DNA from: Candidatus Latescibacterota bacterium
GTDB lineage: Bacteria; Latescibacterota; UBA2968; UBA8231
Direction: 5' to 3'
Assembly (NCBI GenBank): GCA_965217585.1
Contig: OZ244561.1
Location: forward strand, 4,384,001 to 4,448,000
Length of the DNA stretch: 64,000 nt
Part shown: positions 5,567 to 35,518 of the stretch, one piece after another
Layout of the letters: each line of letters begins with the position of its first letter
Position numbering within the stretch: the stretch's first letter is position 1
Translations under genes and position numbers: made by a program
The notes under the pieces: model-generated
What the model was told of the DNA's origin: nothing
The model's database searches: none
What the model saw: the letters and a program-made list of their open reading frames with translations, nothing else

Positions 5567-8368
5567 TCAAAACAGGGGTCTCAGGCCGGCGATCATGCGC
5601 AGGAAAACGCGCGAAAAGTCGATACCCTGGTCGTGGCGCGACCGGTCCTTGAACTTGCGTGTGCTCCTCTGATAACCCACTTCGACATTGATCTGGTAGC
5701 CCGTGTACGAGGATTTGTTGGTCACCAAGGCCACGTAGTCCTCCCCGTCGAAATCCGCTCCCGGAGCCGCCTTGTTGCGATACAGGCTCTTGAGAAAGGG
5801 CAAACCCTGGGTGCCCACCTTCACGGAGGTGCGTTTCGAAATCGGGTACTCCATCCGCAAGATGGGATAGACGAAGTCCTCTTCAATCGGCAGTACTTGG
5901 CCCTCGTCGTCGAGGCGCTGGCGCAACCACTTGAACTGCAGCATCACCCCCAACTGCTTCCACGGCATCCACAGATAATCGGCCTTGAAGACCGTGGCCA
6001 GATCGGCGATGCGGTTGTCCGGCTGGAGGGGCGTGCGGCGCTGGAAGTTATTTTCCGACTTCAGGCTCACCTCGACATTGAGATTGGACACGCGGATGAA
6101 GCGGGTGCGCATATAGAAGGTATTGACCCAACTATCGCGCATCAGCAGTGGATCGACCAGCAGCCGCGATGTGCCCAGCGGATGGCGCAATTCCTCCTGG
6201 GTGGGCAGGCGCAAGGGGATTATATCCGGGGTGAAGTATATGGGATCGCGCCCCAGGCCAAAGACTTCGTCCGCAATCTCGTCCCGCACCCTCTTGAGCC
6301 GCTCGACAGCGTAGATCTCAACCAGGAAGGGCAGGCGGCGTTCGTGCTCGTAGCGGCCGTAGTACACTTCGGCCTGATCGCCGCCAAAGGGCGCCCAGGT
6401 CCGGTGGTAGCCCAGGGTCACTTTCATGCCCGAACGCGGCCGGTAGCTACCAAAGCCGTGCAGCCCTCGTCGGTCCTGGTCGTACGGGTAATCGGGCTTC
6501 AAATCGTCTTCGCGCTCGTCGATGACGCCGTTGTTATTGGTATCTTCGCCGTAGTCGTACGCGTCGGGATTGACCCCGTAGAGCAGGAAGGCTTCGTAGT
6601 AGTCTGGGATGCGGTTGTTGTTCTCGTTGATATCGGGCCGGCCATTCAAATCGGCGTCGAGTCCAGGGAAGATGCCGTCGGGATCCTCGATGAAACGCCC
6701 GCCCGCCAGGCTGGTGGTTTTACGCAGGAAAAAGGTGTCGGGGAAGGGGTCTTTGTCGTCGTTGTCGTCCACTGTATCAAATTCGAGGGTGCGGGTGGCG
6801 TCGGCCCGGTTGGGGCCGAGGAAATCCGGCAGTCTGGGCTCCTGGAAATTGGTGGGGAACTGGAAGGGGCTGTTGATCAACTGGAAATAGGTCTGGTACG
6901 AGTCATCCTGCACGGACAGGCGGGTGGTGTACTCAGCGTCTATGTTAAAGGCTTCGCCGCCCAAACTGAAGCGCCCGAGATCGCGCCGCAGTACGGCGAA
7001 CCAAGCCTGGCTCTGATCGAGCTGGTGCCGGCCCAGGGTGCCCAGCAGGGCCGGATAGGCGCGGTACGAGAAATTGCGCACGTACTCAGTCCGCAGCGAG
7101 TACCCCTTGATGTCTATATTGGCATGCACGCTAGCTAGGGTGCGCCCGGTCTCCCGGCCGTAGCGCACTCGCACTCGGCGGAAATTGTCGAGGTTGTCGG
7201 GCTTGCCCTGCGCCTGCCCGGCGGGGTAGAAATAGGTCGCGGGGTTAAAAGAGGCCCCATCGAATATCTCCGACAATTCGAGCAGATAATCCCCGGCCAC
7301 GTCGATCTCTATAGCGGCTTTGTTGACGATGAGGGTATCGAGCCCGTCGATAAAGGAGGAAGGCACCTGGAACCAGAACAGCAGCGACCCCTCGCCCCGA
7401 GTTTCATAAACTCCCTGCGGGGTCGGCTCGATGTGTGGAAAGTTGATGGCTAGGTCGTTGCTCGAGTCGCGGAAAATCGGCGGAATGATGGTGCGGTCCG
7501 GGTGTTCGGTGACCGTGAGTCGCAACGCGCCCGTGTCGAGTTTGTTGTAGGGTCCGAGCACGTGCTCCAAGCGGCGGCCGTTGAGCGCGACGCCCGCCCT
7601 GCGGACCCGCACGCCGATGGCGTCGTTGGGGTCTTGGTCGGCCACGCGCAACACCAGCCACAGGGGGGGAGCCCCGGTGGTGGGCAGGGTCCCTTTGAAG
7701 CTGTTCTCGCCGAGCGTCTTAAAACTGTCGGTGCGGTACTGGTTGACCCAGCTCACGCCCAGATCCAGGCCCGGCCGCTTGGTGCGCAGGTCGGCGCCCA
7801 GCAAATAGGTACTCCACGACGGCCTGAACTGCGAACCCTCGCGGCCGTGGACCACGAAGTCAGCATTTCTGATGGCCTCGAAAATGGGTCGATCGACGCG
7901 CGATACAGCCAGCACCAGCGAGGCGTTCTTGAAGTTGCTGTCCACCCGGAGCCCGTTCATAGCCGCCAAGTCGAGGGTCAGCGGAGTGAATTTGGTGCGG
8001 ATGCGATCGCCGATAATCAGGCGGGTGTCCACGCCTTTGTACGAGTCGTTGGCAATGACTAGGCGATTGAGAAAATCACCGTATTGCCGCTCCTTGCCGA
8101 TGATGCTTCCGGGCGTGGTCTGCAAGGTGCGGAATTCCTGCAGTTCAAAGACATTGACCCCGTTCATCACGAACTGCCCCATATTGTCGAACTGCGGCGT
8201 GCGATCGCGGCCGAATACCAGACTCTCATACGGCCGGTATCCCTCGTACGCATAGTTGCGGTACGGCTCGGTGTTGCGGATGATCAACTGGGCATCCACT
8301 GCCGCGCCGCACGCTAGGGCCAGGGCCAGGAAGGCTAGATGTCGGTTCGCGCCGCGCATATCAGCCAA
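5567..8368 (-). CDS. Large secreted/outer-membrane protein of unknown function, paralogue 2
   Basis: 933-aa ORF with signal peptide; motifs RTKFTPLT, VDDNDDKDPFPD, DGIFPGLDADLNGRPD, REDDLKPDYPYD; ends in F; start overlaps the upstream gene by 8 bp. Confidence 0.8.
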   Translation of the reverse strand: MADMRGANRHLAFLALALACGAAVDAQLIIRNTEPYRNYAYEGYRPYESLVFGRDRTPQFDNMGQFVMNGVNVFELQEFRTLQTTPGSIIGKERQYGDFLNRLVIANDSYKGVDTRLIIGDRIRTKFTPLTLDLAAMNGLRVDSNFKNASLVLAVSRVDRPIFEAIRNADFVVHGREGSQFRPSWSTYLLGADLRTKRPGLDLGVSWVNQYRTDSFKTLGENSFKGTLPTTGAPPLWLVLRVADQDPNDAIGVRVRRAGVALNGRRLEHVLGPYNKLDTGALRLTVTEHPDRTIIPPIFRDSSNDLAINFPHIEPTPQGVYETRGEGSLLFWFQVPSSFIDGLDTLIVNKAAIEIDVAGDYLLELSEIFDGASFNPATYFYPAGQAQGKPDNLDNFRRVRVRYGRETGRTLASVHANIDIKGYSLRTEYVRNFSYRAYPALLGTLGRHQLDQSQAWFAVLRRDLGRFSLGGEAFNIDAEYTTRLSVQDDSYQTYFQLINSPFQFPTNFQEPRLPDFLGPNRADATRTLEFDTVDDNDDKDPFPDTFFLRKTTSLAGGRFIEDPDGIFPGLDADLNGRPDINENNNRIPDYYEAFLLYGVNPDAYDYGEDTNNNGVIDEREDDLKPDYPYDQDRRGLHGFGSYRPRSGMKVTLGYHRTWAPFGGDQAEVYYGRYEHERRLPFLVEIYAVERLKRVRDEIADEVFGLGRDPIYFTPDIIPLRLPTQEELRHPLGTSRLLVDPLLMRDSWVNTFYMRTRFIRVSNLNVEVSLKSENNFQRRTPLQPDNRIADLATVFKADYLWMPWKQLGVMLQFKWLRQRLDDEGQVLPIEEDFVYPILRMEYPISKRTSVKVGTQGLPFLKSLYRNKAAPGADFDGEDYVALVTNKSSYTGYQINVEVGYQRSTRKFKDRSRHDQGIDFSRVFLRMIAGLRPLF

Positions 8369-19760: not shown

Positions 19761-20603
19761 ATGGACGCTGGTATAGAGGAGAAAGTGGATCAACTGCGCC
19801 GCGAGGGTTGGTGCGTCTTGGAGCGGATTATTCCGGAGGACGCTATAGACCGAGTGCGGACGCACGTGCAAGAAGCGCACGCAAAGGCACAACAGGACTA
19901 CGAGGCCATGGGCGGGCACATCGGGCGGCAGACCGGCCCCAATGGCGAGCCGGGCGTTTGCCTGATCGCGTATTTGCCGGAGTTTGCGCCCTATTTGGGC
20001 GACGAGCGTTTGTTGGGGGTGGCGCAGGCGGTTTTTGGGGGGCACGTGCGGATTGCGCAGACCGAGTTTAAGACGCAAGTGCCCAACCGCGAGGACTTGG
20101 ACTGGCGCGGCTTTCACTCGGATTGGCCACACGACCTGACCGACAGGGACTTCGCCGGCCGGGTGGCTCAGCCCTTCCCGGATGCGACCATGCAGCTATC
20201 GGTGCTGTGGATGCTGTCGCCGTTTAGCCCAGAGACGGGTGGAACGTGGGTGGTGCCGCGCAGCCACCGCGACCCGCTCAACCCGCGCAGGCACCAGACG
20301 CCCGAAGGGCTGGAGGAGCGGATCGATCAGTTCAAGCCGATTCGCGGGGAGATCCAGGTCGTCGGCCCGGAGGGCAGTGCGCTGGTGATGGACAGCCGGA
20401 TCTGGCATTCGACCGCGGCGAATCCCAGCCCAGAGCCTCGGGTGGCGATCATCACGCGCTATTGTCCGTGGTGGTTGAGCGTGGAATTTGGCGGGCGCAA
20501 CAATGCGATTGTGCCGAGGGCGGCCTACGAGGCTCTGCCGGAGGCGGTCAAGCCGCTCTATCGGCACCGGGCCGAGGGAGAGGAGAATCCGTTTCGGGGG
20601 TGA
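19761..20603 (+). CDS. Phytanoyl-CoA dioxygenase (PhyH) family protein
   Basis: HSDWPH (HxD), GGTWVVPRSH, DSRIWHS; GAGAGG upstream of ATG 19761. Confidence 0.85.
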   Translation: MDAGIEEKVDQLRREGWCVLERIIPEDAIDRVRTHVQEAHAKAQQDYEAMGGHIGRQTGPNGEPGVCLIAYLPEFAPYLGDERLLGVAQAVFGGHVRIAQTEFKTQVPNREDLDWRGFHSDWPHDLTDRDFAGRVAQPFPDATMQLSVLWMLSPFSPETGGTWVVPRSHRDPLNPRRHQTPEGLEERIDQFKPIRGEIQVVGPEGSALVMDSRIWHSTAANPSPEPRVAIITRYCPWWLSVEFGGRNNAIVPRAAYEALPEAVKPLYRHRAEGEENPFRG

Positions 20604-20619
20604 GGGGGGGGATATTTGA

Positions 20620-21633
20620 TCACGCGCTTTTAGTACCGTTAATCACAAACTTTTTTGTTGCCTCCTCAATGTGGATCATAGGAAATGCCTCATCCCGAAT
20701 TTGGTTCCACAATTTCATATATATTTTATGGCCAATAACTTGGAGGACGTCTGGAGCAGCAGTATTTTCCTTAAAACTATCTGTGCCATATCCCACAATT
20801 ACACCGCAATGATTAGACAGAACATAGCGATTATGAAAAGGATGGTTTCCTTTTTTTATTTCTATATTGTTCTCGATCTGCCACACAAAAACCTTTACAG
20901 ACTCCCCTATTGGTATTAAGTGTGTGTAGTGCTGTTTAAGGCTGTTCTCATTAATTTTCTCTGGAACATCTGGACAGCAATGAATTGTCAGTGATGGAAA
21001 AGGATAATCTGTTGTGTCATACTGTTGGGCTAAGTCTTTGATAATCTTTTTGTAATTTCTGGTAAACAAACTGTCACTATCCACGTTAAAATATCTATCG
21101 ATAAAGTGAATATTCTCAGCAATCCGAAGCATTGGCAGGATAGCCTTTACGAAATCTCCAGGACTACGAGTGATTGCAATACCACTAGGTGTATTCCAGG
21201 CTTTTACATTTCTATTGAGTTCGTCAGGATGGTATTTTCGTCTTTCATCGTCAGCTCTCTCAGCATCAGCCTCTTCGTATTCAGGGCTGACGACGGCAGA
21301 AAAAGGCTCTCGTCGGTGCTCTTTCTCTATTTCGGTAATCCAAGAAAATTGTGAAAAATCATCATAATACCAATCAGTCCAAACAGTTCCTGGTCGATCT
21401 ACCAGTTGGCCCCTCACCATGTTCAGGCGGTCTTTCAAACCTTGCGCTTTTATGGTTGGAAGGTCAAGTTCTTGAACGAGTTGATCAAAAATCGGTTTCG
21501 CATTTTTATACCACTGGCCATATGGCAAATCTGCAATTACACGTCCTTGTGATGGATGACAGTGCTCAGTGCAATATCGGAACCACTCCAAATTTCGACA
21601 TATTTCTGGATCAATAGCAAAGATACTCAGCAT
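20620..21633 (-). CDS. Hypothetical protein with C-terminal PLD/MIT_C-like motif, partner of the adjacent ATPase
   Basis: AT-rich ORF starting 2 bp after the ATPase stop; IHFIDRYF and HNRYVLSNHCGVIVGYGTD resemble the single HxR PLD-like signature. Confidence 0.6.
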   Translation of the reverse strand: MLSIFAIDPEICRNLEWFRYCTEHCHPSQGRVIADLPYGQWYKNAKPIFDQLVQELDLPTIKAQGLKDRLNMVRGQLVDRPGTVWTDWYYDDFSQFSWITEIEKEHRREPFSAVVSPEYEEADAERADDERRKYHPDELNRNVKAWNTPSGIAITRSPGDFVKAILPMLRIAENIHFIDRYFNVDSDSLFTRNYKKIIKDLAQQYDTTDYPFPSLTIHCCPDVPEKINENSLKQHYTHLIPIGESVKVFVWQIENNIEIKKGNHPFHNRYVLSNHCGVIVGYGTDSFKENTAAPDVLQVIGHKIYMKLWNQIRDEAFPMIHIEEATKKFVINGTKSA

Positions 21634-21635
21634 AA

Positions 21636-23108
21636 TTAATACCACTCCGACTCACGTTCTTCGAAAAAGCCTTCTGGCCATGGTGCATCAAAATCGCCGT
21701 TATTCGTTACAGTGAGTGGAGTGAATTTAACTCCTGCTGGCGTTAGTCGAACATAGATCACAGACAGATCGTTAGGCGTCAATTCGTGATCTGTCTGTTC
21801 TGATTCAGTGGTTTGGTATCTGCTACGACGGGTCGTTTCACGCACACGCCGTAGCAACCGCAACAGCAAGTGCTCAGAATGCGTTTCGATGAGCATGATA
21901 CGATCCGGGCTTTGTATGCCATCAATAAACAAATCGCCCAAACCTACTTGAACCGATGGATGAACATGAAGCTCTGGTTGTTCAACCGCAAACATTTTAG
22001 GGCTATGGTAACCTTGGTCTAACGCACCCACGAGAACTGGAAAGACTTGGGAAATGCCAAAACCAACATCTAAGGGATGTACCTCTATGCCGCTGTTTTC
22101 ATCCTGAAGTAGAATCGGATGTTGGCGAGGTAGCAGTTCAAGAGGTTTGAGAACTTGCTTTGTTAACCTATCGACTTCTACTCTGTCTTCATCAGAGGAG
22201 CAAATTTTTCTCAGATTTGCTATACCTTCGTTATTCCAATCAAGAGAAGATCTGTCTGACTGTAGGAAGCTATATCCAAGTGCCAACTTTTGAGCATAGC
22301 GGTTTACTTTTTCGGCCAACTCGGAGTCCCGTGCGAGTGCATCCCAAGCCTCTAACCCGGTTGCCCACCGAGATTCATTGTACATTTGGGATACAAGATA
22401 ATTGCGAGGGGGCACTTCTCGGATTGGGCCCAGATATCGGATGCCATTTAATTTTTCTCGAACGTAGCTTAATTCATCTCCTCTCATAATTTCATTGAAC
22501 TCGCTTGAGATCATATAGTCTTCTTTTGCCTCTTTTACAATTGAAGAATTCTTATTTACAAAATATCGATATCCTTTTTCGTCATGTTTGCCGTCATGTC
22601 TAGAATAACCAATACCCCACCACTGATTAAGCGGATACAGTTGTTGGCCTTTATCATGATTGGATTTTCCTTTGTCATTCAAAGCATAAAAGCATTCTTC
22701 GCCATTCAAAGCATATATGTATGACTCGACAGAAGCAATATCTTGTGTTTCGTCCCAGCTCACTACCAATTCTATCTCCGCAGAATTATATTTAAGTTTG
22801 CTTGCATATGATAGGTCAAACTCAAGGCGTATACGGATTTTTCGATTCAGGTCGTGGCGATGCACTAAGGAAGGAAAATCACCTAGATCAATAGGTATGT
22901 TTTCCAGAGGTCTGTACCCCGATCGTATATCAAATAGATAGCCTTGGTGGAAACGTAGAAATAGTTCGCGCATGTAGAGCAATGCCTGCAACACCGTTGA
23001 CTTGCCCGAACTATTTTTGCCAAACAACAAGGTGAGAGGGCGAATAGGAATGGTCACGGCGTCGCCGATACACTTAAAGTTTTCTATAGTGATAGATGCA
23101 AGAGCCAT
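21636..23108 (-). CDS. AAA_15/ABC-type ATPase with DUF3696-like C-terminus
   Basis: IENFK, Walker A GKNSSGKS, VGFGISQ signature, Walker B AVEQPELHVHP, IETHSEH, C-terminal WPEGFFEER. Confidence 0.85.
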   Translation of the reverse strand: MALASITIENFKCIGDAVTIPIRPLTLLFGKNSSGKSTVLQALLYMRELFLRFHQGYLFDIRSGYRPLENIPIDLGDFPSLVHRHDLNRKIRIRLEFDLSYASKLKYNSAEIELVVSWDETQDIASVESYIYALNGEECFYALNDKGKSNHDKGQQLYPLNQWWGIGYSRHDGKHDEKGYRYFVNKNSSIVKEAKEDYMISSEFNEIMRGDELSYVREKLNGIRYLGPIREVPPRNYLVSQMYNESRWATGLEAWDALARDSELAEKVNRYAQKLALGYSFLQSDRSSLDWNNEGIANLRKICSSDEDRVEVDRLTKQVLKPLELLPRQHPILLQDENSGIEVHPLDVGFGISQVFPVLVGALDQGYHSPKMFAVEQPELHVHPSVQVGLGDLFIDGIQSPDRIMLIETHSEHLLLRLLRRVRETTRRSRYQTTESEQTDHELTPNDLSVIYVRLTPAGVKFTPLTVTNNGDFDAPWPEGFFEERESEWY

Positions 23109-23140
23109 GATTTTCTCACAAGTTGGTGAATGAATGCTAA

Positions 23141-23210
23141 AAACGTCTGTCTGTGCGTGAGTGATAATTGCGCCAGTACGCTATCCAATTCACTCCGCAC
23201 AGACAAGTTT
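23141..23210 (-). terminator. Long imperfect hairpin followed by a T-tract on the minus strand
   Basis: TGTCTGTGCG (23148-57) pairs with CGCACAGACA (23196-205), with inner GAGTGA/TCACTC and AATTG/CAATT; GACGTTTTT follows on the minus strand. Confidence 0.5.
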
Positions 23211-23272
23211 GAAATGGGGCTTATAAATAGTGCCCAAAGCCCCCCAAATAGTTGTCTTATCCACTCAGGGTG

Positions 23273-23362
23273 CTAACGTCCTCCTTTTGAGCGACCGAGC
23301 AACACGTTCAGGATGGCGACGGCTAGTTCCGCAGCCAACCTGGCTTTGTCTTTCTTAGACAT
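23273..23362 (-). CDS. Putative 29-aa amphipathic micropeptide MSKKDKARLAAELAVAILNVLLGRSKGGR
   Basis: AAAGGAGAGG upstream of ATG; TAG stop; below the ORF-track size cutoff. Confidence 0.55.
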   Translation of the reverse strand: MSKKDKARLAAELAVAILNVLLGRSKGGR

Positions 23363-23430
23363 GGTTGCCTCTCCTTTCTGGAATTGAGTTCAGAAGGTCA
23401 TCTCCGATGAGTAGCTTGTCAAGAAAACTC

Positions 23431-23466
23431 TATCAGAGGACAGGAATTCATTCCTGCCCCCTGATA
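23431..23466 (-). terminator. Strong hairpin between the two micropeptide ORFs
   Basis: TATCAGGGGGCAGGAA pairs with TTCCTGTCCTCTGATA (two G-U pairs on the minus strand), followed by GAGTTTTCTT. Confidence 0.6.
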
Positions 23467-23479
23467 CTCGCCCAAACTA

Positions 23480-23554
23480 CTATCGCTTCTTAGACAGCCA
23501 ATGGTCTATGACGACAATAGCGACCTGAATGGCAAACGGTAACAATTTTGCCAT
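23480..23554 (-). CDS. Putative 24-aa hydrophobic micropeptide MAKLLPFAIQVAIVVIDHWLSKKR (type I toxin-like)
   Basis: Perfect SD AAAGGAGGT 6 nt before ATG; hydrophobic core, Trp and basic tail. Confidence 0.6.
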   Translation of the reverse strand: MAKLLPFAIQVAIVVIDHWLSKKR

Positions 23555-23699
23555 AGCCTTACCTCCTTTCAGATAGATTTGCGGCACTCCATCTGCTTCT
23601 CCCAAGCATCTCCGGCTCTTCCGGTTCACGGGACGGCTTCACACGCCTTTCCCGCCCGCGGCCTTCTTTGCCTCCCAACCTCGCCGCTGCCTACATAAA

Positions 23700-23714
23700 G
23701 CACATTTTGTGCCA
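23700..23714 (-). promoter_or_regulatory. Sigma54 (-24/-12) promoter
   Basis: Minus strand TGGCACAAAATGTGC matches the TGGCAC-N5-TTGC consensus with correct GG/GC spacing; lies 43 bp downstream of a sigma54 activator gene. Confidence 0.75.
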
Positions 23715-23757
23715 AACTTATCTGAAAGGCGAAATAGCTCTAGATTTTCCTCCTTCT

Positions 23758-25254
23758 TTATACCTTGTACTTCTTCTTCCAGTTGTCAAACGTCTGACGA
23801 TTAGACAGTCCCAACCGTTCTGCGGCTTCTGTTTTCGTTGTAGATTCCTCCTCGGCACGCTGAAAATAGTGTCTGATGACTTCGCTAATGAGCTCATTTA
23901 TGCTAAAACCCCCACCTAATGGGCGATTCAATATATCTTCGCCCCCCTTATCGTAGATGGGTAAGAATGCCCCTTCAATATCTTGTTTTTTGAGAATTTC
24001 GCCGTCTGTCCACACCATTGCGCGCCTAAGCGTGTTTTGCAACTCGCGTATATTGCCCGGCCAAGGGTGATTCAGGATAAGATTTTTTGCGCCAGCGGAA
24101 ATTTTTTTACGTCGGTACCCAGGCTGTTCCTTGCTCTCCTCATTGATCTGCTCGATCAAATGGTCGATCAGCAGACCCAAATCCCCCGGACGGTCCCTCA
24201 AGGGCGGCAATTTGAGATAGGCCACTGCAATCCGATAAAACAAATCCTCTCGAAATCGTCCTTCACGCACTTCCTCACTGAGCGTCCGGTTTGTTGCCGC
24301 TACAATTCGTACATCTACACTGATAGGTTTGGATGCACCGAGGCGGTCAATCTGGCCTCCTTCGAGGACGCGCAACAATTTAACCTGTATATCTTTAGGT
24401 AACTCGCCGATTTCATCCAAAAAGAGCGTACCGCCGTTGGCCAACTCAAAACGACCTTTGCGCGGGGCCTTTGCGTCGGTAAACGCGCCTTTTTCGTGCC
24501 CAAACAGTTCGGATTCCACGAGAGTTTGCGGAATTGCACCGCAGTTCACGGGGATAAATGGCTTATCTCTTCTAGGGCTGTGTTGGTGAATGGCGCGGGC
24601 AAAAAGTTCTTTTCCGGTGCCGGATTCGCCTTCTAGCAAAACGGGAACGTTCCGCAACGCGACGCGCTGCGCTCTCTCGACCAGATGAGCCATAATCGGA
24701 CTTCGGTAGTGTATGTCTGCAAAATTTGCCGACTCTATGGGTTTCTCTGCACTGACCGAGCGGAGCCGCTCGTCGGGTTTGAGCAGAAGGTCGGGCAAAA
24801 ATTCTGCCGAAATATCGAAGGGGACAGATACCGTTTGAACGCCGTATTCTCTTGAAGACTCGATCAATTCAGCGGGAAAGCGAGTTTTCGCTAAGATGAT
24901 CCACACCGCGGCCATTGCTGGCGTACCAGCACTAAGGTGAAAAGTCAATTCCACTTGATCGCGCTGTTCGCCCAAAGCCGCTGTGCAAACGCGCACCGCC
25001 GCCTCATAGATTTCGCCAAAGTGAGTCGGACTTGAAAGCTTCTCCTCATATAATTGGTATGGCGTCGAGCTCCGTTTCTTTGCCCATTCGACGTACGCGG
25101 GTACACGGTCATCGGACAGGTAGTTTGAAATCAGAAATACCTCGTCAAACCCGAGCTTTTCCACCGCCTGTGCAGTAGGACCCTCACCAACATCATCTCC
25201 TTGTGAAGCACGCAAATCTGTAGTGCTGATCCAGCACAGCAAAACTTTTTTCAT
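23758..25254 (-). CDS. Sigma54-dependent activator (bEBP) with N-terminal RtcR/CARF-like sensor domain
   Basis: GESGTGKE, ESELFGHEKGAFTDA, LFLDEIGE, WPGNIRELQN, C-terminal HTH; N-terminal LTFHLSAGTPAM is CARF-like. Confidence 0.85.
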   Translation of the reverse strand: MKKVLLCWISTTDLRASQGDDVGEGPTAQAVEKLGFDEVFLISNYLSDDRVPAYVEWAKKRSSTPYQLYEEKLSSPTHFGEIYEAAVRVCTAALGEQRDQVELTFHLSAGTPAMAAVWIILAKTRFPAELIESSREYGVQTVSVPFDISAEFLPDLLLKPDERLRSVSAEKPIESANFADIHYRSPIMAHLVERAQRVALRNVPVLLEGESGTGKELFARAIHQHSPRRDKPFIPVNCGAIPQTLVESELFGHEKGAFTDAKAPRKGRFELANGGTLFLDEIGELPKDIQVKLLRVLEGGQIDRLGASKPISVDVRIVAATNRTLSEEVREGRFREDLFYRIAVAYLKLPPLRDRPGDLGLLIDHLIEQINEESKEQPGYRRKKISAGAKNLILNHPWPGNIRELQNTLRRAMVWTDGEILKKQDIEGAFLPIYDKGGEDILNRPLGGGFSINELISEVIRHYFQRAEEESTTKTEAAERLGLSNRQTFDNWKKKYKV

Positions 25255-25426
25255 CTCAGCATACCATCTCTACACGGATATCTTTCACCAAGCCAACCGC
25301 GTGGTGTTGCTTAAAGGGCCGTGTTTATTAGCTTGTGAGAGCAAGGAATGGGCATGGTCGCCGAACCTCTTGAAGCAGCCTGTGTCTGCCCTTTGACCGC
25401 GAAGCGGAGAATTGAAGGAGGTCACC

Positions 25427-25681
25427 ATGAGCACTTCTCCATTTGAATTTACTCCTGAGCAGAAGGCGGTACTAGAGGGGCTTTCGCAAAGTACCGGGGA
25501 AGATATATGCAGCTTGATTGCTCGTGCTGTAGAAAAGTTACAAGAAGAAGAGGAGCGCAGAGTGGACGAGACAGATTACCTGCTCTCTTCACCAAAAAAC
25601 GCGGCCCATCTCCAGAAGGCACTAGAGGATTTCCAGCACGGCCAGCGCAATTTTGCTTCCCGAGACTTAATCGAGGAATGA
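25427..25681 (+). CDS. Antitoxin: YefM-like C-terminus with RHH-like N-terminus
   Basis: AAGGAGG RBS; ETDYLLSSPKNAAHLQKALED is YefM-like; ATGA overlap with the toxin gene. Confidence 0.75.
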   Translation: MSTSPFEFTPEQKAVLEGLSQSTGEDICSLIARAVEKLQEEEERRVDETDYLLSSPKNAAHLQKALEDFQHGQRNFASRDLIEE

Positions 25682-25935
25682 GACACATTAGCTTCCATGC
25701 AGACGCTTGGCAGGATTATCTCTACTGGTATCAGACTAGCAAAAGCACCTTCAAGAAAATCAACGAACTTATTCGAGATACCCAGCGCAACCCGTTTACA
25801 GGGCTTGGCAAACCCGAAGTTCTGAAACATGATTTTCAGGGATGTTGGTCCCGTCGAATTACTCGAGAACATCGTCTCGTTTACCGCATAGAGTCAGACA
25901 CCCTCTTTATCTTGTCTTGTCGGTATCACTACTAA
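25678..25935 (+). CDS. yoeB: Txe/YoeB family mRNA interferase toxin
   Basis: AWQDYLYW...KKINELI...PFTGLGKPEVLKHD...WSRRITREHRLVY...SCRYHY. Confidence 0.92.
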   Translation: MRHISFHADAWQDYLYWYQTSKSTFKKINELIRDTQRNPFTGLGKPEVLKHDFQGCWSRRITREHRLVYRIESDTLFILSCRYHY

Positions 25936-25949
25936 CTACACGACACCCC

Positions 25950-26408
25950 CTAAGCCGATATATCGAGCAGGGCCTCTTCGTCGGCTAGGGCGTAGCCCTG
26001 TTCGAGCAGGTCGGCGAGGGTTGTGCGCGATAAAATTTGATCAACGGCCTGCTGCACTTGCCCCCACAGCGCGCGCACCGAACACGCGGTGAGCGAGTGC
26101 GTGCAGCAATCCGCGCTGCCGGAGAAGTGATCGCAGAAGTCGTCGTCGAAGAGGCGACCGCCCAGCGTGACGAGCGCGTCGGCCACGGCGATTTGGTGGG
26201 GAGGCTTGGTGAGGGCGTAGCCGCCTTGCTGGCCGCGGGCACTTGCCACAAAGCCGCCTTGCCGGAGAATGCGCAAGAGCTTGGCGACGTTGTGATGGGT
26301 GATGCCCTCAGCTTGGCTGATTTCCGGGATGGTCAGGCTGCCGGGGGTCTGGCGGGCCAGTTGCAACAGGCAGCGCAAACCGTATTCTTCGCTCGAGCTG
26401 AGTTTCAT
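25950..26408 (-). CDS. Rrf2-family transcriptional regulator
   Basis: EYGLRCLLQLA, VASARGQQGGYAL, Cys cluster; last gene of the suf operon. Confidence 0.9.
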   Translation of the reverse strand: MKLSSSEEYGLRCLLQLARQTPGSLTIPEISQAEGITHHNVAKLLRILRQGGFVASARGQQGGYALTKPPHQIAVADALVTLGGRLFDDDFCDHFSGSADCCTHSLTACSVRALWGQVQQAVDQILSRTTLADLLEQGYALADEEALLDISA

Positions 26409-31149: not shown

Positions 31150-32772
31150 TTACCCCTCTTGAATGCGGGCGGAAATTTCTGCCCAGCGATTGTAGAGGGA
31201 TTCAGTGACCAAGCCGAAGCCAGCCGGAAAGGTTGCCGACTCGGTATCGAGCGAAATTTCTCGCACCACGGAACCTCTCCCTTCCGAACTCGGCTCGAAG
31301 AACCACGCTCCTAATTGATCGGGACTGAGCACTATATCTGCATTATCAATGCCCTCGCGCCGCTCCTCGGGAAGTTCTGCTAAGCGAACCAGATTGGCCA
31401 ACTCTTCCAGTACCCATTCGCTGTGGGTGGTAATGATGATTCGGATACCAGACTGCACGGCTGCTGCGAGTTGACGGGTGAACTCCACCTGCATGGCCGG
31501 ATGCAGGTGGGATTCGGGTTCTTCAATGATGAGCAGGTCGCCTAGCTGAACGACATGACGTAGGTATAGCACTACAGGTGCTAACTCCGACACCATGGAT
31601 GATGCATTCATCAAGGGCAAATCTCGCTTCCAGCCATTCGGTCGAAAGACAAACGAAGGGTAGTCGATTGGCGACTGTTCGACGCGGACGGCCCCCCGTA
31701 GTAGCGTCTGTTCCAAGCGCTGTGCGAGGTTATCGTAATTTTTATGGTGTGCCCGTCGCGATGAACCGGCCAACGCAACAAGCTGTTCCATAAAGTCGCC
31801 GAGAACTCCAGAAAGTACTGGCATGGGAGAATCCGGTCGTAGCGCAGCCCGCGATGCTCTCGCTATCAAAGATCGCACGACCACTTGATGTGCGTGCATT
31901 ACACCAGCGCGGTCGGCGGGAAGGTAATGCGCGGGGCGAGACAATGGGCCGGCGATATCTGAAGCAATGTCGCTAGCAAGAGTGCAAAGCAGGTCCTCTA
32001 AAATACGTTTGGCACGTTCCTTTCCGTCCGATTCCATATTCTCCAGTTCAGTCAGCCAGTCGATATTCAGATTGGCCGTCGCCTTACTTCCCATCTTGTT
32101 AAATCCCATATTCTCCAGTTCAGCCAACCAGTCTACGTGCCAGTTCCAGAGAAGGACTGAGATATCTCCCATATTCATCTGTAAGGGCATTGTATTCGGA
32201 ATTGTAGCATCTATTTTAGCCCCTTGCTCTGTTACTTCAACTTCGTATCCGAAAGGATCATTTTGTCCTACTTCCTCTGAGTTATTTTGATACAGGGAAA
32301 GTATAGTTTTGCCATCACTTAGATGGCGAATTAAAGTTTTCGCCTTCTCCACCCCAAAGCATCTTGTGATTTCACCCTCTAAGTCTCCGCTTAAATGTGC
32401 AATATTGTTGATAATTGGACGTACTGACATCGCAACGGATTCTGGTAATTCAATTAAGTAGGACTTCTCATGTTTAGTAGTTTGTAAGTCCGAAATCGTT
32501 TCTTTAATCCAATCATAAAGACCTGAAAGATCATTTGTCGACAAATCAAGACTTTGTCGCTTTCTCAGAAGCATTGGCGAGCGAATATCATCCCTTGAGT
32601 AGGCGTTGAAAAACTTATGTAGCACGTAAATGAGGGCCGCCATGTAGGATTTTCCGGTGTTGCTCGATCCCACGAATACGGACATTGGGCGCAGTTCGAT
32701 ACTCGCCGCGGCGATTGGGCCGAAATTGGAAATCGTTAGCTCAAGGGGCTTTGCCTTGGATGTCGTAGTCAT
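31150..32772 (-). CDS. AAA_15/AAA_21 ABC-type ATPase
   Basis: ISNFGPI, GSSNTGKS, ASSMVSELAP, IIEEPESHLHP, ITTHSE. Confidence 0.85.
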   Translation of the reverse strand: MTTTSKAKPLELTISNFGPIAAASIELRPMSVFVGSSNTGKSYMAALIYVLHKFFNAYSRDDIRSPMLLRKRQSLDLSTNDLSGLYDWIKETISDLQTTKHEKSYLIELPESVAMSVRPIINNIAHLSGDLEGEITRCFGVEKAKTLIRHLSDGKTILSLYQNNSEEVGQNDPFGYEVEVTEQGAKIDATIPNTMPLQMNMGDISVLLWNWHVDWLAELENMGFNKMGSKATANLNIDWLTELENMESDGKERAKRILEDLLCTLASDIASDIAGPLSRPAHYLPADRAGVMHAHQVVVRSLIARASRAALRPDSPMPVLSGVLGDFMEQLVALAGSSRRAHHKNYDNLAQRLEQTLLRGAVRVEQSPIDYPSFVFRPNGWKRDLPLMNASSMVSELAPVVLYLRHVVQLGDLLIIEEPESHLHPAMQVEFTRQLAAAVQSGIRIIITTHSEWVLEELANLVRLAELPEERREGIDNADIVLSPDQLGAWFFEPSSEGRGSVVREISLDTESATFPAGFGLVTESLYNRWAEISARIQEG

Positions 32773-33555: not shown

Positions 33556-34816
33556 CAGGGCAATCGCATCAAAAGTGCCCAGCGGACAATACTTTAGCCA
33601 AATAGGTGTTATCCCATCCGGCCTTGAGCCGTTTGGTCTGGACGCCGACCTTGGCCGTCTTCTCTTGCTGGAGCAGACTCACGGCAATCTGTCGCAGGAG
33701 GGCCATATTTTCCGGGGCATGGCCGGTGCGTACCCGTGAGTCATCTTCACGGAAGACCACATCCAGTATCCAGTGCAAGGAATTTTCAATGCTCCAATGA
33801 CTACGCACCGCTTCACCAAACCGCTGGGCATCGTTGTCCAGGCTGGAGATATAGTAGCGTCGTTCCACGGAGACTTGATCGCCTACCTGTCGCTGGGCTT
33901 CAACCATACCGAACAAGCCTAAGCCCTTCCAAGCGGTCCCATCGGCAAAAGCGTCGACCTGATCGGTGGTCCAGTACCGGCGGGTCTCAATGCGGCCGTG
34001 GTTTTCATCGTAGGTCTCAAACATGTCGACCGATAGATCCTGATGCAGTTGAGGCTCCCCTCGGTCGAAGACCTGACGCAGATGATGCAACAGCTTGGGC
34101 TGATTAGCCTTGACGGCCAGTACGTAGTCGCCTTGCCGGTCGATGACCTGTTCGGCCACGCTTTTGTGGCAGCCGATGGCATCGACGGTGACGATGCAGC
34201 CTTTGAGCGCCAGCACACGCAGCAGTTCGGGAATGAGGGTGATCTCGTCCAGACCGCCTTCACAGTGGAACTGGCCTAACACCAGTCGGTTTTTCACCGC
34301 CCAGGCATTGACCATATGTACGGCTGCTTTACCCGAGGTTCGGTCATAAGAGTGGCGCAACGTTTTGCCATCAATAGGCACAATCTCTTCCTCAAGCTTG
34401 GGGAGGAGGGATTGGACCCAAGCACTGAAACAGTCCTGGAAATGCTCGGGCGAGATCCGGGCGAAGACGCGGCCGAAGGTGTCATGGGAAGGAATGCCAT
34501 TGGGCAACGCCAGAAAGGTTTTTAGCCAGTCGTATTTGGATCGCCCAAACTCAGCGATATGCACCCAGTTGTCGGCCCCGCAGATCGCGCCACACACGGC
34601 AATGACCACAATATCGATGAGACGATGCCTTTGGCTGCGCTCGATACGGGGATCGGGTACCTGGGAAAAATGTTCAATCAGTGAATCAGCCGAAGGTGCC
34701 ATGGGGAAACGTTCCAAGAGAAGGGGAGAGAAGCAGCGCACCAGCGCTATCGAAAAAGACACAGAAAATATAACATAACCCTATGACAAATCTCAATTTT
34801 TGGTGCGATTGCCCTG
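33556..34816 (-). mobile_element. Complete ISAs1-family insertion sequence (1261 bp)
   Basis: TIR CAGGGCAATCGCA(T/C)CAAAA at both ends; perfect 10-bp TSD GGATCTCATA at 33546-33555 and 34817-34826. Confidence 0.95.
33569..34702 (-). CDS. ISAs1-family transposase (start 34702, or up to 34762)
   Basis: PDPR, GIPSHDTF, IDGKTLR, VTVDAIGC, HGRIETR, RSHWSIENSLHWILDV. Confidence 0.95.
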   Translation of the reverse strand: MAPSADSLIEHFSQVPDPRIERSQRHRLIDIVVIAVCGAICGADNWVHIAEFGRSKYDWLKTFLALPNGIPSHDTFGRVFARISPEHFQDCFSAWVQSLLPKLEEEIVPIDGKTLRHSYDRTSGKAAVHMVNAWAVKNRLVLGQFHCEGGLDEITLIPELLRVLALKGCIVTVDAIGCHKSVAEQVIDRQGDYVLAVKANQPKLLHHLRQVFDRGEPQLHQDLSVDMFETYDENHGRIETRRYWTTDQVDAFADGTAWKGLGLFGMVEAQRQVGDQVSVERRYYISSLDNDAQRFGEAVRSHWSIENSLHWILDVVFREDDSRVRTGHAPENMALLRQIAVSLLQQEKTAKVGVQTKRLKAGWDNTYLAKVLSAGHF

Positions 34817-35350
34817 GGATCTCATATCTAACACTTCTTCTTCTTTTACTGGGTCTGTATAGATTTCAACAAATTTTTCTCCTTTTTTATAATAACAAAA
34901 ATGAACATAACGAACATCTGATTTCCTGTCAGCATAACCAAAGGTTATACTTTGATTAGAATCAAATCTCAGCAACTGCTCAACATACGAATCTTCTTCA
35001 TAACCTTTCATAAGTTCTCTAACAAATTTTTCAAAGCGATTAAACTCTATCGTAACTATATGTCCATTTGAGCTAAGTTTTTCACCTTCTTTTCTTTTCT
35101 CGTTTTCTGCTTCAATGCTACCATACATAACAACCTCGTGCGTATCATATCTCGGCTCAAAGTATTTTATTGCCTCTTCCGCAACATACACATTCTTGTT
35201 ATCATCTTCACATTCTCCGTTTTTAGGCCTCATTTTCTTTTTCCAACGCCATGCCCTCGAATCTATCCATTTCTTTTGTATTATAGGAATAGCCATTATA
35301 GATGTTGCCACTCCTGTTATTGCTATAAAAATCGTTGTTATTGTTTCCAT
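34793..35350 (-). CDS. AT-rich hypothetical protein with N-terminal membrane anchor; last 3 codons displaced by ISAs1
   Basis: AGGAGG RBS; hydrophobic N-terminus; removing the IS gives ...VLDMRSLYI* with TAA at 33534-33536. Confidence 0.75.
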   Translation of the reverse strand: METITTIFIAITGVATSIMAIPIIQKKWIDSRAWRWKKKMRPKNGECEDDNKNVYVAEEAIKYFEPRYDTHEVVMYGSIEAENEKRKEGEKLSSNGHIVTIEFNRFEKFVRELMKGYEEDSYVEQLLRFDSNQSITFGYADRKSDVRYVHFCYYKKGEKFVEIYTDPVKEEEVLDMRSQGNRTKN

Positions 35351-35518
35351 TATTCATTTCCTCCTAAAAGCTGTGAGCCTCAGCCTCAATCCCGCCGAAG
35401 GTCCGATTGATTTACTACCGCTTCACTGTCATGGACTCAATCGTCTCCTTCAGCTCCCTCCCCTCCCTGACTAGCTAGATCATTGGGATTTACAAACTTG
35501 GTTTACATTTATTCTGTA

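Follow-up and report, generated by a model that had tools for sequence, protein, structure and literature searches.

We analyzed a 64,000-nucleotide stretch of the genome of a Candidatus Latescibacterota bacterium (assembly GCA_965217585.1, contig OZ244561.1, positions 4,384,001 to 4,448,000 of the forward strand), hereafter called the window, in whose coordinates all positions are given unless another contig or locus is named. Within it lies a low-GC island (20605..25283, minus strand) running from the gene of a CARF-bearing sigma-54 activator, or bacterial enhancer-binding protein (bEBP), to a gene pair encoding an ATPase and a nuclease-like partner. After the bEBP stop codon come, in this order, a sigma-54 promoter, a GC-rich leader, the peptide gene pepC, a stem-loop, a TTTTCTTGACA box, the peptide gene pepD, a second stem-loop, the ATPase gene and the partner gene. 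A preliminary description, made from the letters alone, had proposed a candidate inducible defence system here, and all elements that it listed were recovered in place on the minus strand. Its picture of an AT-richer, co-oriented island also agrees with the GC profile, in which GC is 0.39-0.53 within the island vs at least 0.60 in the flanks, and with the location of all parts on one strand. Neither rtc (rtcA, rtcB) nor hsd genes were found within the island, as had been noted before, and RtcB and Pfam RtcR (PF06956) had no match anywhere in the 7.3-Mb genome, a single contig of 94.6% completeness. The gene for sigma-54 itself, rpoN, was found in the genome (E 1.6e-60).

Alignment with empty sites in congeners showed that the 4.7-kb island (20605-25283) is a single insertion. 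Four congeners without the bEBP were examined. In three of them (G146, G134 and G142), the flanking genes (suf-Rrf2-(YefM/YoeB)-PhyH-enolase-like) are contiguous and their products are 92-98% identical in amino-acid sequence to those of the window, while in the fourth (G130) the same site is rearranged and uninformative. Alignment to the empty sites of two congeners puts one insertion junction ~30 bp ahead of the ATG of the bEBP gene and the other just past the partner stop codon. The bEBP N-terminal domain was found to be patchily distributed: 33 of 168 genomes in the phylum have it, as do 10 of 30 in the genus.

The activator gene (23758..25254, minus strand) encodes a 498-aa protein with a CARF-AAA+-helix-turn-helix (HTH) plan, identified from Pfam, PADLOC and its translation. 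The Pfam family Sigma54_activat matched residues 183-347 (4e-71), AAA_lid_14 matched as well, and the PADLOC profile RtcR_PspF2--CARF_AAA_HTH covered residues 2-498 (5.4e-189). Separate CARF profiles also matched the N-terminus, namely CARF4 (2.2e-11), Csx1/Csm6 (1.1e-7, residues 1-131) and CARF1 (8e-4). By these profiles, the N-terminal domain (roughly aa 1-175, about 24730-25254, minus strand), described earlier as CARF-like, is a CARF domain of the RtcR_PspF2 group. A profile search of PDB sequences with this domain returned nothing relevant. The protein is not RtcR proper, because the NCBIfam RtcR equivalog NF038308 scored 334.6 bits vs a cut-off of 650, Pfam RtcR (PF06956) did not match the protein, and the genome is without RtcB.

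We compared the island across 33 loci, comprising the window and 32 homologous activators with 13 kb each, of which 22 belong to a close clade and 11 are distant. The loci were collected by searching genomes with the bEBP N-domain, of which ~2,575 homologues were found in all; a search with the whole bEBP gave mostly generic AAA+-only sigma-54 activators (full-length in 1 of 80 kept loci). The Walker A motif GESGTGKE was present in 30 of the 33 loci, including the window, and the bEBP of the window is 83-90% identical to those of seven other loci. A type III CRISPR cyclic oligoadenylate was considered as the obligatory signal for the CARF domain and rejected. Cas10/Csm1 matches above the cut-off were found in only 8 of 33 bEBP-positive genomes, including that of the window, and in 12 of 135 bEBP-negative ones, and a ligand from type III CRISPR is therefore not required, although it may still serve in this genome.

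The sigma-54 -24/-12 promoter TGGCACAAAATGTGCT (23699..23714, minus strand) was identified from its motif and its conserved position. The distance from the bEBP stop codon to the T of TGGCAC is 43 nt, as given in the preliminary description, which had called for a check of homologous bEBP loci. Scanning the loci with the pattern TGGCAC-N5-xTGC, we found that 22 of the 33 loci, including the window, have a match no more than 65 bp from the bEBP stop, and that one more has it at +344. Matches at this distance were missing from L115, where the -12 element is mutated, from two loci with disrupted activators, and from L143, whose only match (+455) falls within a downstream open reading frame (ORF). 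Judged from sequence comparison, this conserved position after the bEBP stop shows the promoter to be real.

The promoter points into the two Shine-Dalgarno-led micropeptide genes that had been described behind it. The first, pepC (23480..23554, minus strand; MAKLLPFAIQVAIVVIDHWLSKKR), has a GGAGG Shine-Dalgarno and encodes a 24-aa hydrophobic peptide with orthologues in 12 loci, where length, reading frame, Shine-Dalgarno and charged tail are all kept. Its pN/pS of 0.54 over 28 pairs indicates purifying selection, and this conservation shows, by comparative measures, that pepC is truly coding. The second, pepD (23273..23362, minus strand; MSKKDKARLAAELAVAILNVLLGRSKGGR), encodes a 29-aa peptide, also with a Shine-Dalgarno, and was found in only one further locus, L116, so its pN/pS of 0.37 comes from that single pair. 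Other leaders carry small genes of their own, for a 22-28-aa hydrophobic peptide, Gly-rich membrane-type peptides, a basic 52-aa protein under purifying selection (pN/pS 0.21) and a ~103-115-aa protein with a weak GIY-YIG match. Being small, hydrophobic and basic-ended, pepC and pepD presumably resemble type I toxins, and they would act on the membrane and arrest growth.

Directly 3' of pepC, folding and comparison identified a 16-bp terminator-like stem-loop (23431..23466, minus strand). It is followed by the TTTTCTTGACA box (23417..23427, minus strand), conserved across cassettes, which combines a T-tract with a sigma-70 -35-like TTGACA. A TTTCTTGACA-type box precedes every ATPase cassette examined, after the hairpin, and in most other loci a -10-like hexamer lies 16-17 nt downstream of TTGACA; in the window this hexamer is poor, as judged by reading. 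With the copies folded singly, a strong hairpin was found before the box at 17 of 25 sites (free energy, dG, -21 to -29 kcal/mol; z -3.6 to -6.6). The stem sequences differ between loci, and the hairpins of the window and L116 differ by a two-pair compensatory change. RNAalifold predicted no pairs on a MAFFT alignment of the element, because the alignment misplaces the hairpin arms. A second long stem-loop followed by a T-run (23149..23204, minus strand; identified by folding) lies ~35 nt before the ATPase start and is kept in L116; the region 23100-23290 folded at -62 kcal/mol (z -4.3).

The other 8 of the 25 sites, among them the first cassettes of one genus, have lost the peptide genes together with the 5' hairpin arm; there the sigma-54 promoter is joined directly to the remaining 3' arm. 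In the seven fused first cassettes, the ATPase gene lies ~190-250 bp from the sigma-54 promoter. The 17 sites with the hairpin and the 8 with the fusion thus define two architectures, one running from promoter through peptides, terminator-like hairpin and sigma-70-like promoter to the ATPase, and the other from promoter directly to the ATPase. In loci of the second kind, the sigma-54 promoter would feed the ATPase directly. In the window, the ATPase operon probably has weak expression from a promoter of its own, and transcription reading through the pepC hairpin probably adds to this.

The ATPase gene (21636..23108, minus strand; 490 aa) encodes an ABC-type, NsnB-like protein with a DUF3696-type tail, identified with Pfam and PADLOC. 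Its designation as a DUF3696 ATPase in the preliminary description is borne out by matches to AAA_15 (1.7e-21) and to the PADLOC profiles PDC-M55A (1.5e-45), NsnB (3.6e-39, residues 3-486) and HEC-03B (2.6e-34), with Pfam DUF3696 itself at 19.4 bits, under its 22-bit cut-off. An ATPase homologue was found downstream on the same strand in 20 of the 22 close-clade loci and in 0 of the 11 distant ones. The genome holds only distant relatives of it elsewhere. In the close clade, the ATPases are only 35-61% identical to that of the window, vs 68-90% for the bEBPs. Across 30 ATPases, conservation is concentrated in the first 30 residues (mean identity 0.90) and the signature/Walker B region (0.60-0.80), while two hypervariable inserts are nearly unalignable (0.04-0.23); lengths range from 408 to 703 aa. 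Directly 3' of the ATPase, an ORF of at least 150 aa was present in 26 of the 30, with an H-x-R-[YF] motif in 22 of these 26, and the partner clusters co-vary with the ATPase tail types.

The partner of the window (20620..21633, minus strand; 337 aa) starts 2 nt past the ATPase stop; an alternative start would give 341 aa (20620-21645). Its NsnC-like assignment comes from an AF2 model (pLDDT 86, pTM 0.84) and fold searches. In this model, the C-terminal domain (aa 150-333) is predicted to adopt a PLD fold, with Foldseek E-values of 7.5e-5 to 1e-3 (BJ-TSA-9, SauUSI, PLD3) and VIA-align Z scores of 9.7 (PLD), 8.7 (SauUSI), 8.3 (NucT), 7.7 (Nuc) and 7.1 (MITD1), which is consistent with the PLD-like, nuclease-like protein proposed before. 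The N-terminal domain (aa 1-150) gave a borderline Z of 7.2 against the PIN protein PAE2754 (PDB 1V8O/1V8P). Residue D179 is invariant in a 30-member close family and at least 90% conserved in a 51-sequence set, and H267 and R269 are invariant among the 51 diverse homologues. The motif reads H-N-R-Y-V-L-S-N, which departs from the canonical PLD H-x-K-x4-D and fits the MIT_C / PB-PLD1 'HDR' variant as given in the accessible text of PMC12065111. The family comprises 440 representatives at 50% identity in a large sequence library and has no Pfam or PADLOC model.

In one genus, two or three ATPase-partner cassettes were found in tandem per locus, and the second cassettes carry the partner type of the window (66-70% identity). 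Further promoter copies precede second or third cassettes in L123, L126, L128, L129 and L131. We examined seven promoter copies that lie elsewhere than right behind a bEBP stop, six before second or third cassettes and one 344 bp past the stop of L128. Upstream of each, we found non-coding DNA whose local similarity to activator 3' ends is significant, with scores of 37-60 vs a mean of ~20 and maxima of 28-38 in shuffles. The similar DNA includes the block that encodes part of the activator C-terminus in the close clade. These remnants of activator 3' ends before internal promoters suggest that each cassette moves as one unit, with its start within the activator gene. From its sequence, the retained block is the best candidate for an activator binding site. 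In the bEBP gene of the close clade, synonymous-site conservation at the 3' end shows a small rise in the last few codons only (0.97 vs ~0.8).

Homologous activators were also found ahead of other cargo. Type I hsdR lies downstream of four distant activators from the same phylum (L134, L136, L142 and L143), with a promoter match -9 to +1 from the stop in three of the four. The Azotobacter plasmid pAcX50d carries a homologous activator and, 5 bp behind it, the sigma-54-like TGGCACGGTCCTCGCT; next comes a type I restriction-modification (R-M) operon, which ends with the same ATPase-partner pair. In L156 (Polaromonas naphthalenivorans plasmid pPNAP01, 8983-17383), the CARF activator is followed by DUF4258, VWA, PP2C phosphatase, protein kinase and large AAA genes, with a sigma-54-like site CGGCACGGTTCTCGCG just ahead of the first cargo gene; we take this cargo to resemble the TerY-P defence triad. 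In other cases, unidentified membrane proteins follow a sigma-54-like site. Relatives of the partner on plasmids, collected by tblastn, stand in similar company: a Methylocella plasmid carries hsdRMS-ATPase-partner-SIR2-DUF87, and on a Deinococcus plasmid the pair adjoins an AAA ATPase and a DUF2357 protein, which we take to be McrBC-like.

We then compared the island with characterized systems. It shares with RtcR-rtcBA the CARF, sigma-54 AAA+ and HTH plan and a sigma-54 promoter that adjoins the regulator, but its cargo is peptides, an ATPase and a nuclease-like partner, and the genome is without an rtcB match. According to the accessible text of PMC9650030, RtcR with its CARF domain deleted is constitutively active, and control by CARF is therefore expected to be negative. 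A prediction that RtcR-like CARF proteins switch on neighbouring defence genes through sigma-54, together with their link to R-M, was published in 2014 (Makarova et al., PMC4012209, accessible text). The R-M-linked CARF-bEBPs of that work and the bEBP described here belong to the same protein family (PADLOC RtcR_PspF2), whereas the island cargo is not R-M. A literature search, covering accessible main texts, did not find the promoter position, the micropeptides, the hairpin/TTGACA element, the promoter-led tandem cassettes or the NsnB/NsnC cargo. Supplementary File 4 of PMC4012209, a list of R-M-linked loci, may bear on novelty.

The gene pair resembles that of Menshen. In the accessible text of PMC12065111, NsnB is an ABC ATPase with DUF3696, and NsnC combines an inactive-PIN-like (inPIN) domain with a variable effector, one class of which (PB-PLD1, with D/E and HDR motifs) is similar to MIT_C. 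The pair of the window fits both plans, including a match to the same PIN protein, PAE2754, and the comparison shows an NsnB-like ATPase with the domain plan of an NsnC-like PIN/PLD-fold partner. The link is thus closer than the preliminary description had held, with the pair following the NsnB/NsnC domain plan, as given in that accessible text, without NsnA. The island differs from Menshen in lacking NsnA (ParB/DUF262) and in having a CARF-bEBP, a sigma-54 promoter and peptide genes attached. No DUF262 gene (PF03235) was found in the island, in agreement with the earlier statement, and the nearest of nine matches in the genome is 91 kb away. The PADLOC NsnC profile did not match the partner of the window. 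HEC-03, an ABC ATPase with a PIN protein, needs both genes for phage protection and is apparently toxic when expressed (bioRxiv 10.1101/2024.01.29.577857, accessible text). The island pair shares with it the two-gene organization of an ABC ATPase and a PIN-type partner and the embedding in other defence systems, as far as the accessible text describes these, but the HEC-03 profile matches mainly the C-terminal ATPase core (best stretch 339-429), and the partner of the window has an extra PLD-fold domain and no HEC-03 profile match.

TisB and DinQ are damage-induced small membrane toxins under LexA. The island shares with them very short hydrophobic peptides behind a tightly shut, signal-dependent promoter, but its switch would be a sigma-54 activator and not LexA.

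Taken together, these features are best read as a signal-induced, sigma-54-gated, self-contained defence module, an account that we consider somewhat more probable than its competitors combined, the defensive role and the signal being the parts that we infer. By analogy with RtcR, the CARF domain would keep the AAA+ ring inactive until it is bound by a ligand or partner that arises in infection or RNA damage. The active bEBP would then open the sigma-54 promoter 43 nt past its own stop codon, and the first product would be a short mRNA that encodes the small hydrophobic peptides, pepC and, in the window, pepD. The Menshen-like ATPase and the PLD-fold effector would be linked to a burst of these small peptides of membrane type, either directly or through read-through. 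If Menshen, Septu and PARIS are a guide, the ATPase may hold and then release or activate its nuclease-like partner, with the hypervariable inserts as the putative specificity part. The earlier proposal of a candidate inducible defence system is supported by the comparative evidence, namely the conserved promoter and peptides, the single insertion and the linkage of the ATPase. The concern that the ATPase pair might be an unrelated insertion is countered by the insertion of bEBP, leader, ATPase and partner as one and by the linkage in 20 of the 22 close-clade loci, and the concern that the peptides might not be conserved behind homologous bEBPs by the recurrence of the 24-aa peptide in 12 loci.

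Several observations weigh against a defence module of this kind. The promoter motif has one match in the window vs 0.4 expected, and at least one match occurred in 29 of 100 shuffles; since one such motif in the window could arise by chance, the evidence for the promoter is its conserved position. Its activation by the bEBP of the window and its dependence on RpoN are assumed by analogy, and in six distant bEBP loci both promoter and cargo are missing from the neighbourhood. The sigma-54-contact loop of the bEBP in the window is GAFTDA, one change from the canonical GAFTGA, and the loop departs from the canonical form in 16 of 22 close-clade bEBPs (GAFTDA, GAFTDS, DAFTGA, NAYTGA, GAFSNA, GVFTGA, GTFANA) but keeps it in all 11 distant bEBPs; some of these activators may be weakened or work differently. 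No match between loop type and -12 sequence was seen among the loci. The CARF fold is predicted from profiles. The Z of 7.2 for the PIN-like domain falls in the range that the tool calls common, the partner had no match in Pfam, NCBIfam or PADLOC (PADLOC E ≤ 0.01), and pepC, pepD and the other leader peptides belong to no Pfam, NCBIfam or PADLOC family. Finally, because a hairpin and a -35 box intervene, the ATPase of the window may not be under the sigma-54 promoter, and because the hairpin, the TTGACA box and the second hairpin all precede the ATPase, the regulated output may be the peptides only.

This last point leads to an alternative in which two separate units happen to be adjacent: the bEBP and the sigma-54 promoter would drive the peptides only, and the ATPase-partner pair would be a fellow traveller expressed constitutively from a sigma-70 promoter. 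The strong hairpin and T-tract after pepC at 17 of 25 sites, the conserved TTGACA box with its -10-like hexamer 16-17 nt on in most loci, and the second hairpin ahead of the ATPase of the window all fit this arrangement. However, eight sites fuse the sigma-54 promoter to the hairpin 3' arm with no peptide gene or intact stem between, internal ATPase cassettes own a sigma-54 promoter, the T-tract (TTTCTT) is shorter than expected of an efficient terminator, and the parts are inserted and lost as one unit, so that we regard two independent units as unlikely, though a serious contender. Degeneration of the switch in this particular genome is far less probable. Here the G-to-D change in the GAFTGA loop would disable activation, leaving the promoter and peptides as relics and the ATPase pair working alone. 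The loop reads GAFTDA in the window vs GAFTGA in L116, its closest leader relative, but GAFTDA is shared by L115, L117 and L121, the bEBP has an undisrupted ORF with 83-90% identity to its counterparts in seven other loci, and the promoter, the pepC Shine-Dalgarno and the pepC frame are intact as well.

Two further alternatives concern the purpose of the island. It might serve a stress response and not immunity, sensing RNA or envelope damage much as RtcR or PspF do, making protective small membrane proteins and handling damaged nucleic acid with the gene pair. RtcR and PspF, the closest characterized relatives, do run repair and envelope-stress operons (NCBIfam matches; accessible text of PMC4012209), yet the island is accessory and patchy, its cargo diversifies fast and is stacked in arrays, the same pair occurs in R-M and defence islands on plasmids, homologous bEBPs stand ahead of hsdR, and the genome is without rtc genes, all of which make a stress role improbable. 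Scarcely credible, in our view, is a selfish addiction or toxin module, in which the shut sigma-54 promoter silences toxic peptides, loss of the regulator or a change of its state kills, and defence is incidental. Small hydrophobic ORFs with basic ends are presumably type I toxin-like, a YefM/YoeB-type pair adjoins the island, and expression of HEC-03 is reported as apparently toxic in the accessible text of bioRxiv 10.1101/2024.01.29.577857. Against this, seven first cassettes without peptides keep the bEBP, the promoter and the ATPase, and no antisense or cognate antitoxin was seen, although no search was aimed at one.

We propose, tentatively, that the bEBP 3' end and sigma-54 promoter form a docking or exchange point where whole effector cassettes get swapped and stacked. 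A cassette would consist of the promoter, toxic micropeptides, a terminator and a diversified NsnB/NsnC-type pair, and each imported cassette would bring a decayed piece of a foreign bEBP 3' end, possibly with the activator binding site. With such imported ends carrying the putative site, one sensor would therefore fire an array of different effectors. At the level of transcription, the arrangement would parallel the CARF effectors of type III CRISPR, and the unusual variation in the GAFTGA loop would stem from selection by phage factors directed against the switch. We think it rather unlikely that all of these parts hold jointly.

Most known anti-phage systems are considered to be produced constitutively, with activation taking place at the protein level. 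Sigma-54 promoters have almost no leak and for this reason suit toxic products. If the island is indeed an inducible defence module, a CARF domain, a domain of nucleotide-sensor type, would gate the transcription of effectors and offer an experimentally tractable case of inducible immunity. The NsnB/NsnC half of Menshen would work without the NsnA sensor, and the conserved micropeptides would join the candidate abortive-infection effectors. The signature of a bEBP plus promoter would flag new defence cargo downstream; so far, the cargo behind this bEBP family takes in type I R-M, an operon that we take to be TerY-P-like, membrane proteins and, behind internal promoters, GIY-YIG-like proteins.

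Some further features were observed at the compared loci. Directly behind internal sigma-54 promoters lie ~103-143-aa ORFs (L123 12108-12455, L129 10078-10509, L131 9205-9552 and L128 5958-6149; the coordinates are bEBP-oriented and equal the locus coordinates except in L128, a minus-strand locus). These ORFs have a weak GIY-YIG match (Pfam 22.2 bits vs a cut-off of 22.6) and weak NCBIfam UvrC and Cho matches. L128 also has a 302-aa ORF, IS transposase-like by eye, between the first sigma-54 promoter and the ATPase cassette (~6533-7441, bEBP-oriented). In L142 (5604-7442) and L143 (4735-7452), both on the minus strand of the loci, HsdR carries a Peptidase_S24 (LexA-like) domain ahead of HSDR_N. 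A sigma-54-like string TGGTATTAATTATGCT straddles the ATPase stop and partner start of the window (21629-21644, minus strand). It is seen again at this junction in L125, L126 and L131, and L127 has an almost identical variant; conservation of the coding sequence across the junction probably accounts for the string.

A related pattern picked up six more near-consensus sigma-54 promoters beyond the window, on the reverse strand of G000:C1 (2761277, 3655290, 3659852, 3791326, 6842578 and 6854003). An inverted repeat, CCTTTAGG...CCTAAAGG, with a T-run after it lies upstream of all six, and most of these promoters precede ORFs with a putative hydrophobic, signal-peptide-like N-terminus, as judged by eye. 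We considered them as members of the same regulon and rejected this, as the different conserved upstream repeat points to a separate regulon. A short, 503-aa Cas10/Csm1-like ORF lies at G000:C1 7138394-7139830, also outside the window and 2.7 Mb away. Its match to the family model is confined to the C-terminal two thirds, and the short form was also found in G140, G102, G123, G125 and G037.

Next to the island, a YefM/YoeB-type toxin-antitoxin pair was found at 25412-25935 (plus strand; Pfam YoeB_toxin 3.4e-36). The pair is present at the empty sites of G146 and G134 and absent from that of G142, and we thus regard it as a separate variable element of the same hotspot. More low-GC patches were observed at 32000-32500 and 34500-35500, with GC of 0.39-0.44 vs 0.55-0.65 in the rest of the window. 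The scan of 20000-26000 against Rfam (E ≤ 1) gave nothing relevant, its one row being a chance miRNA match.

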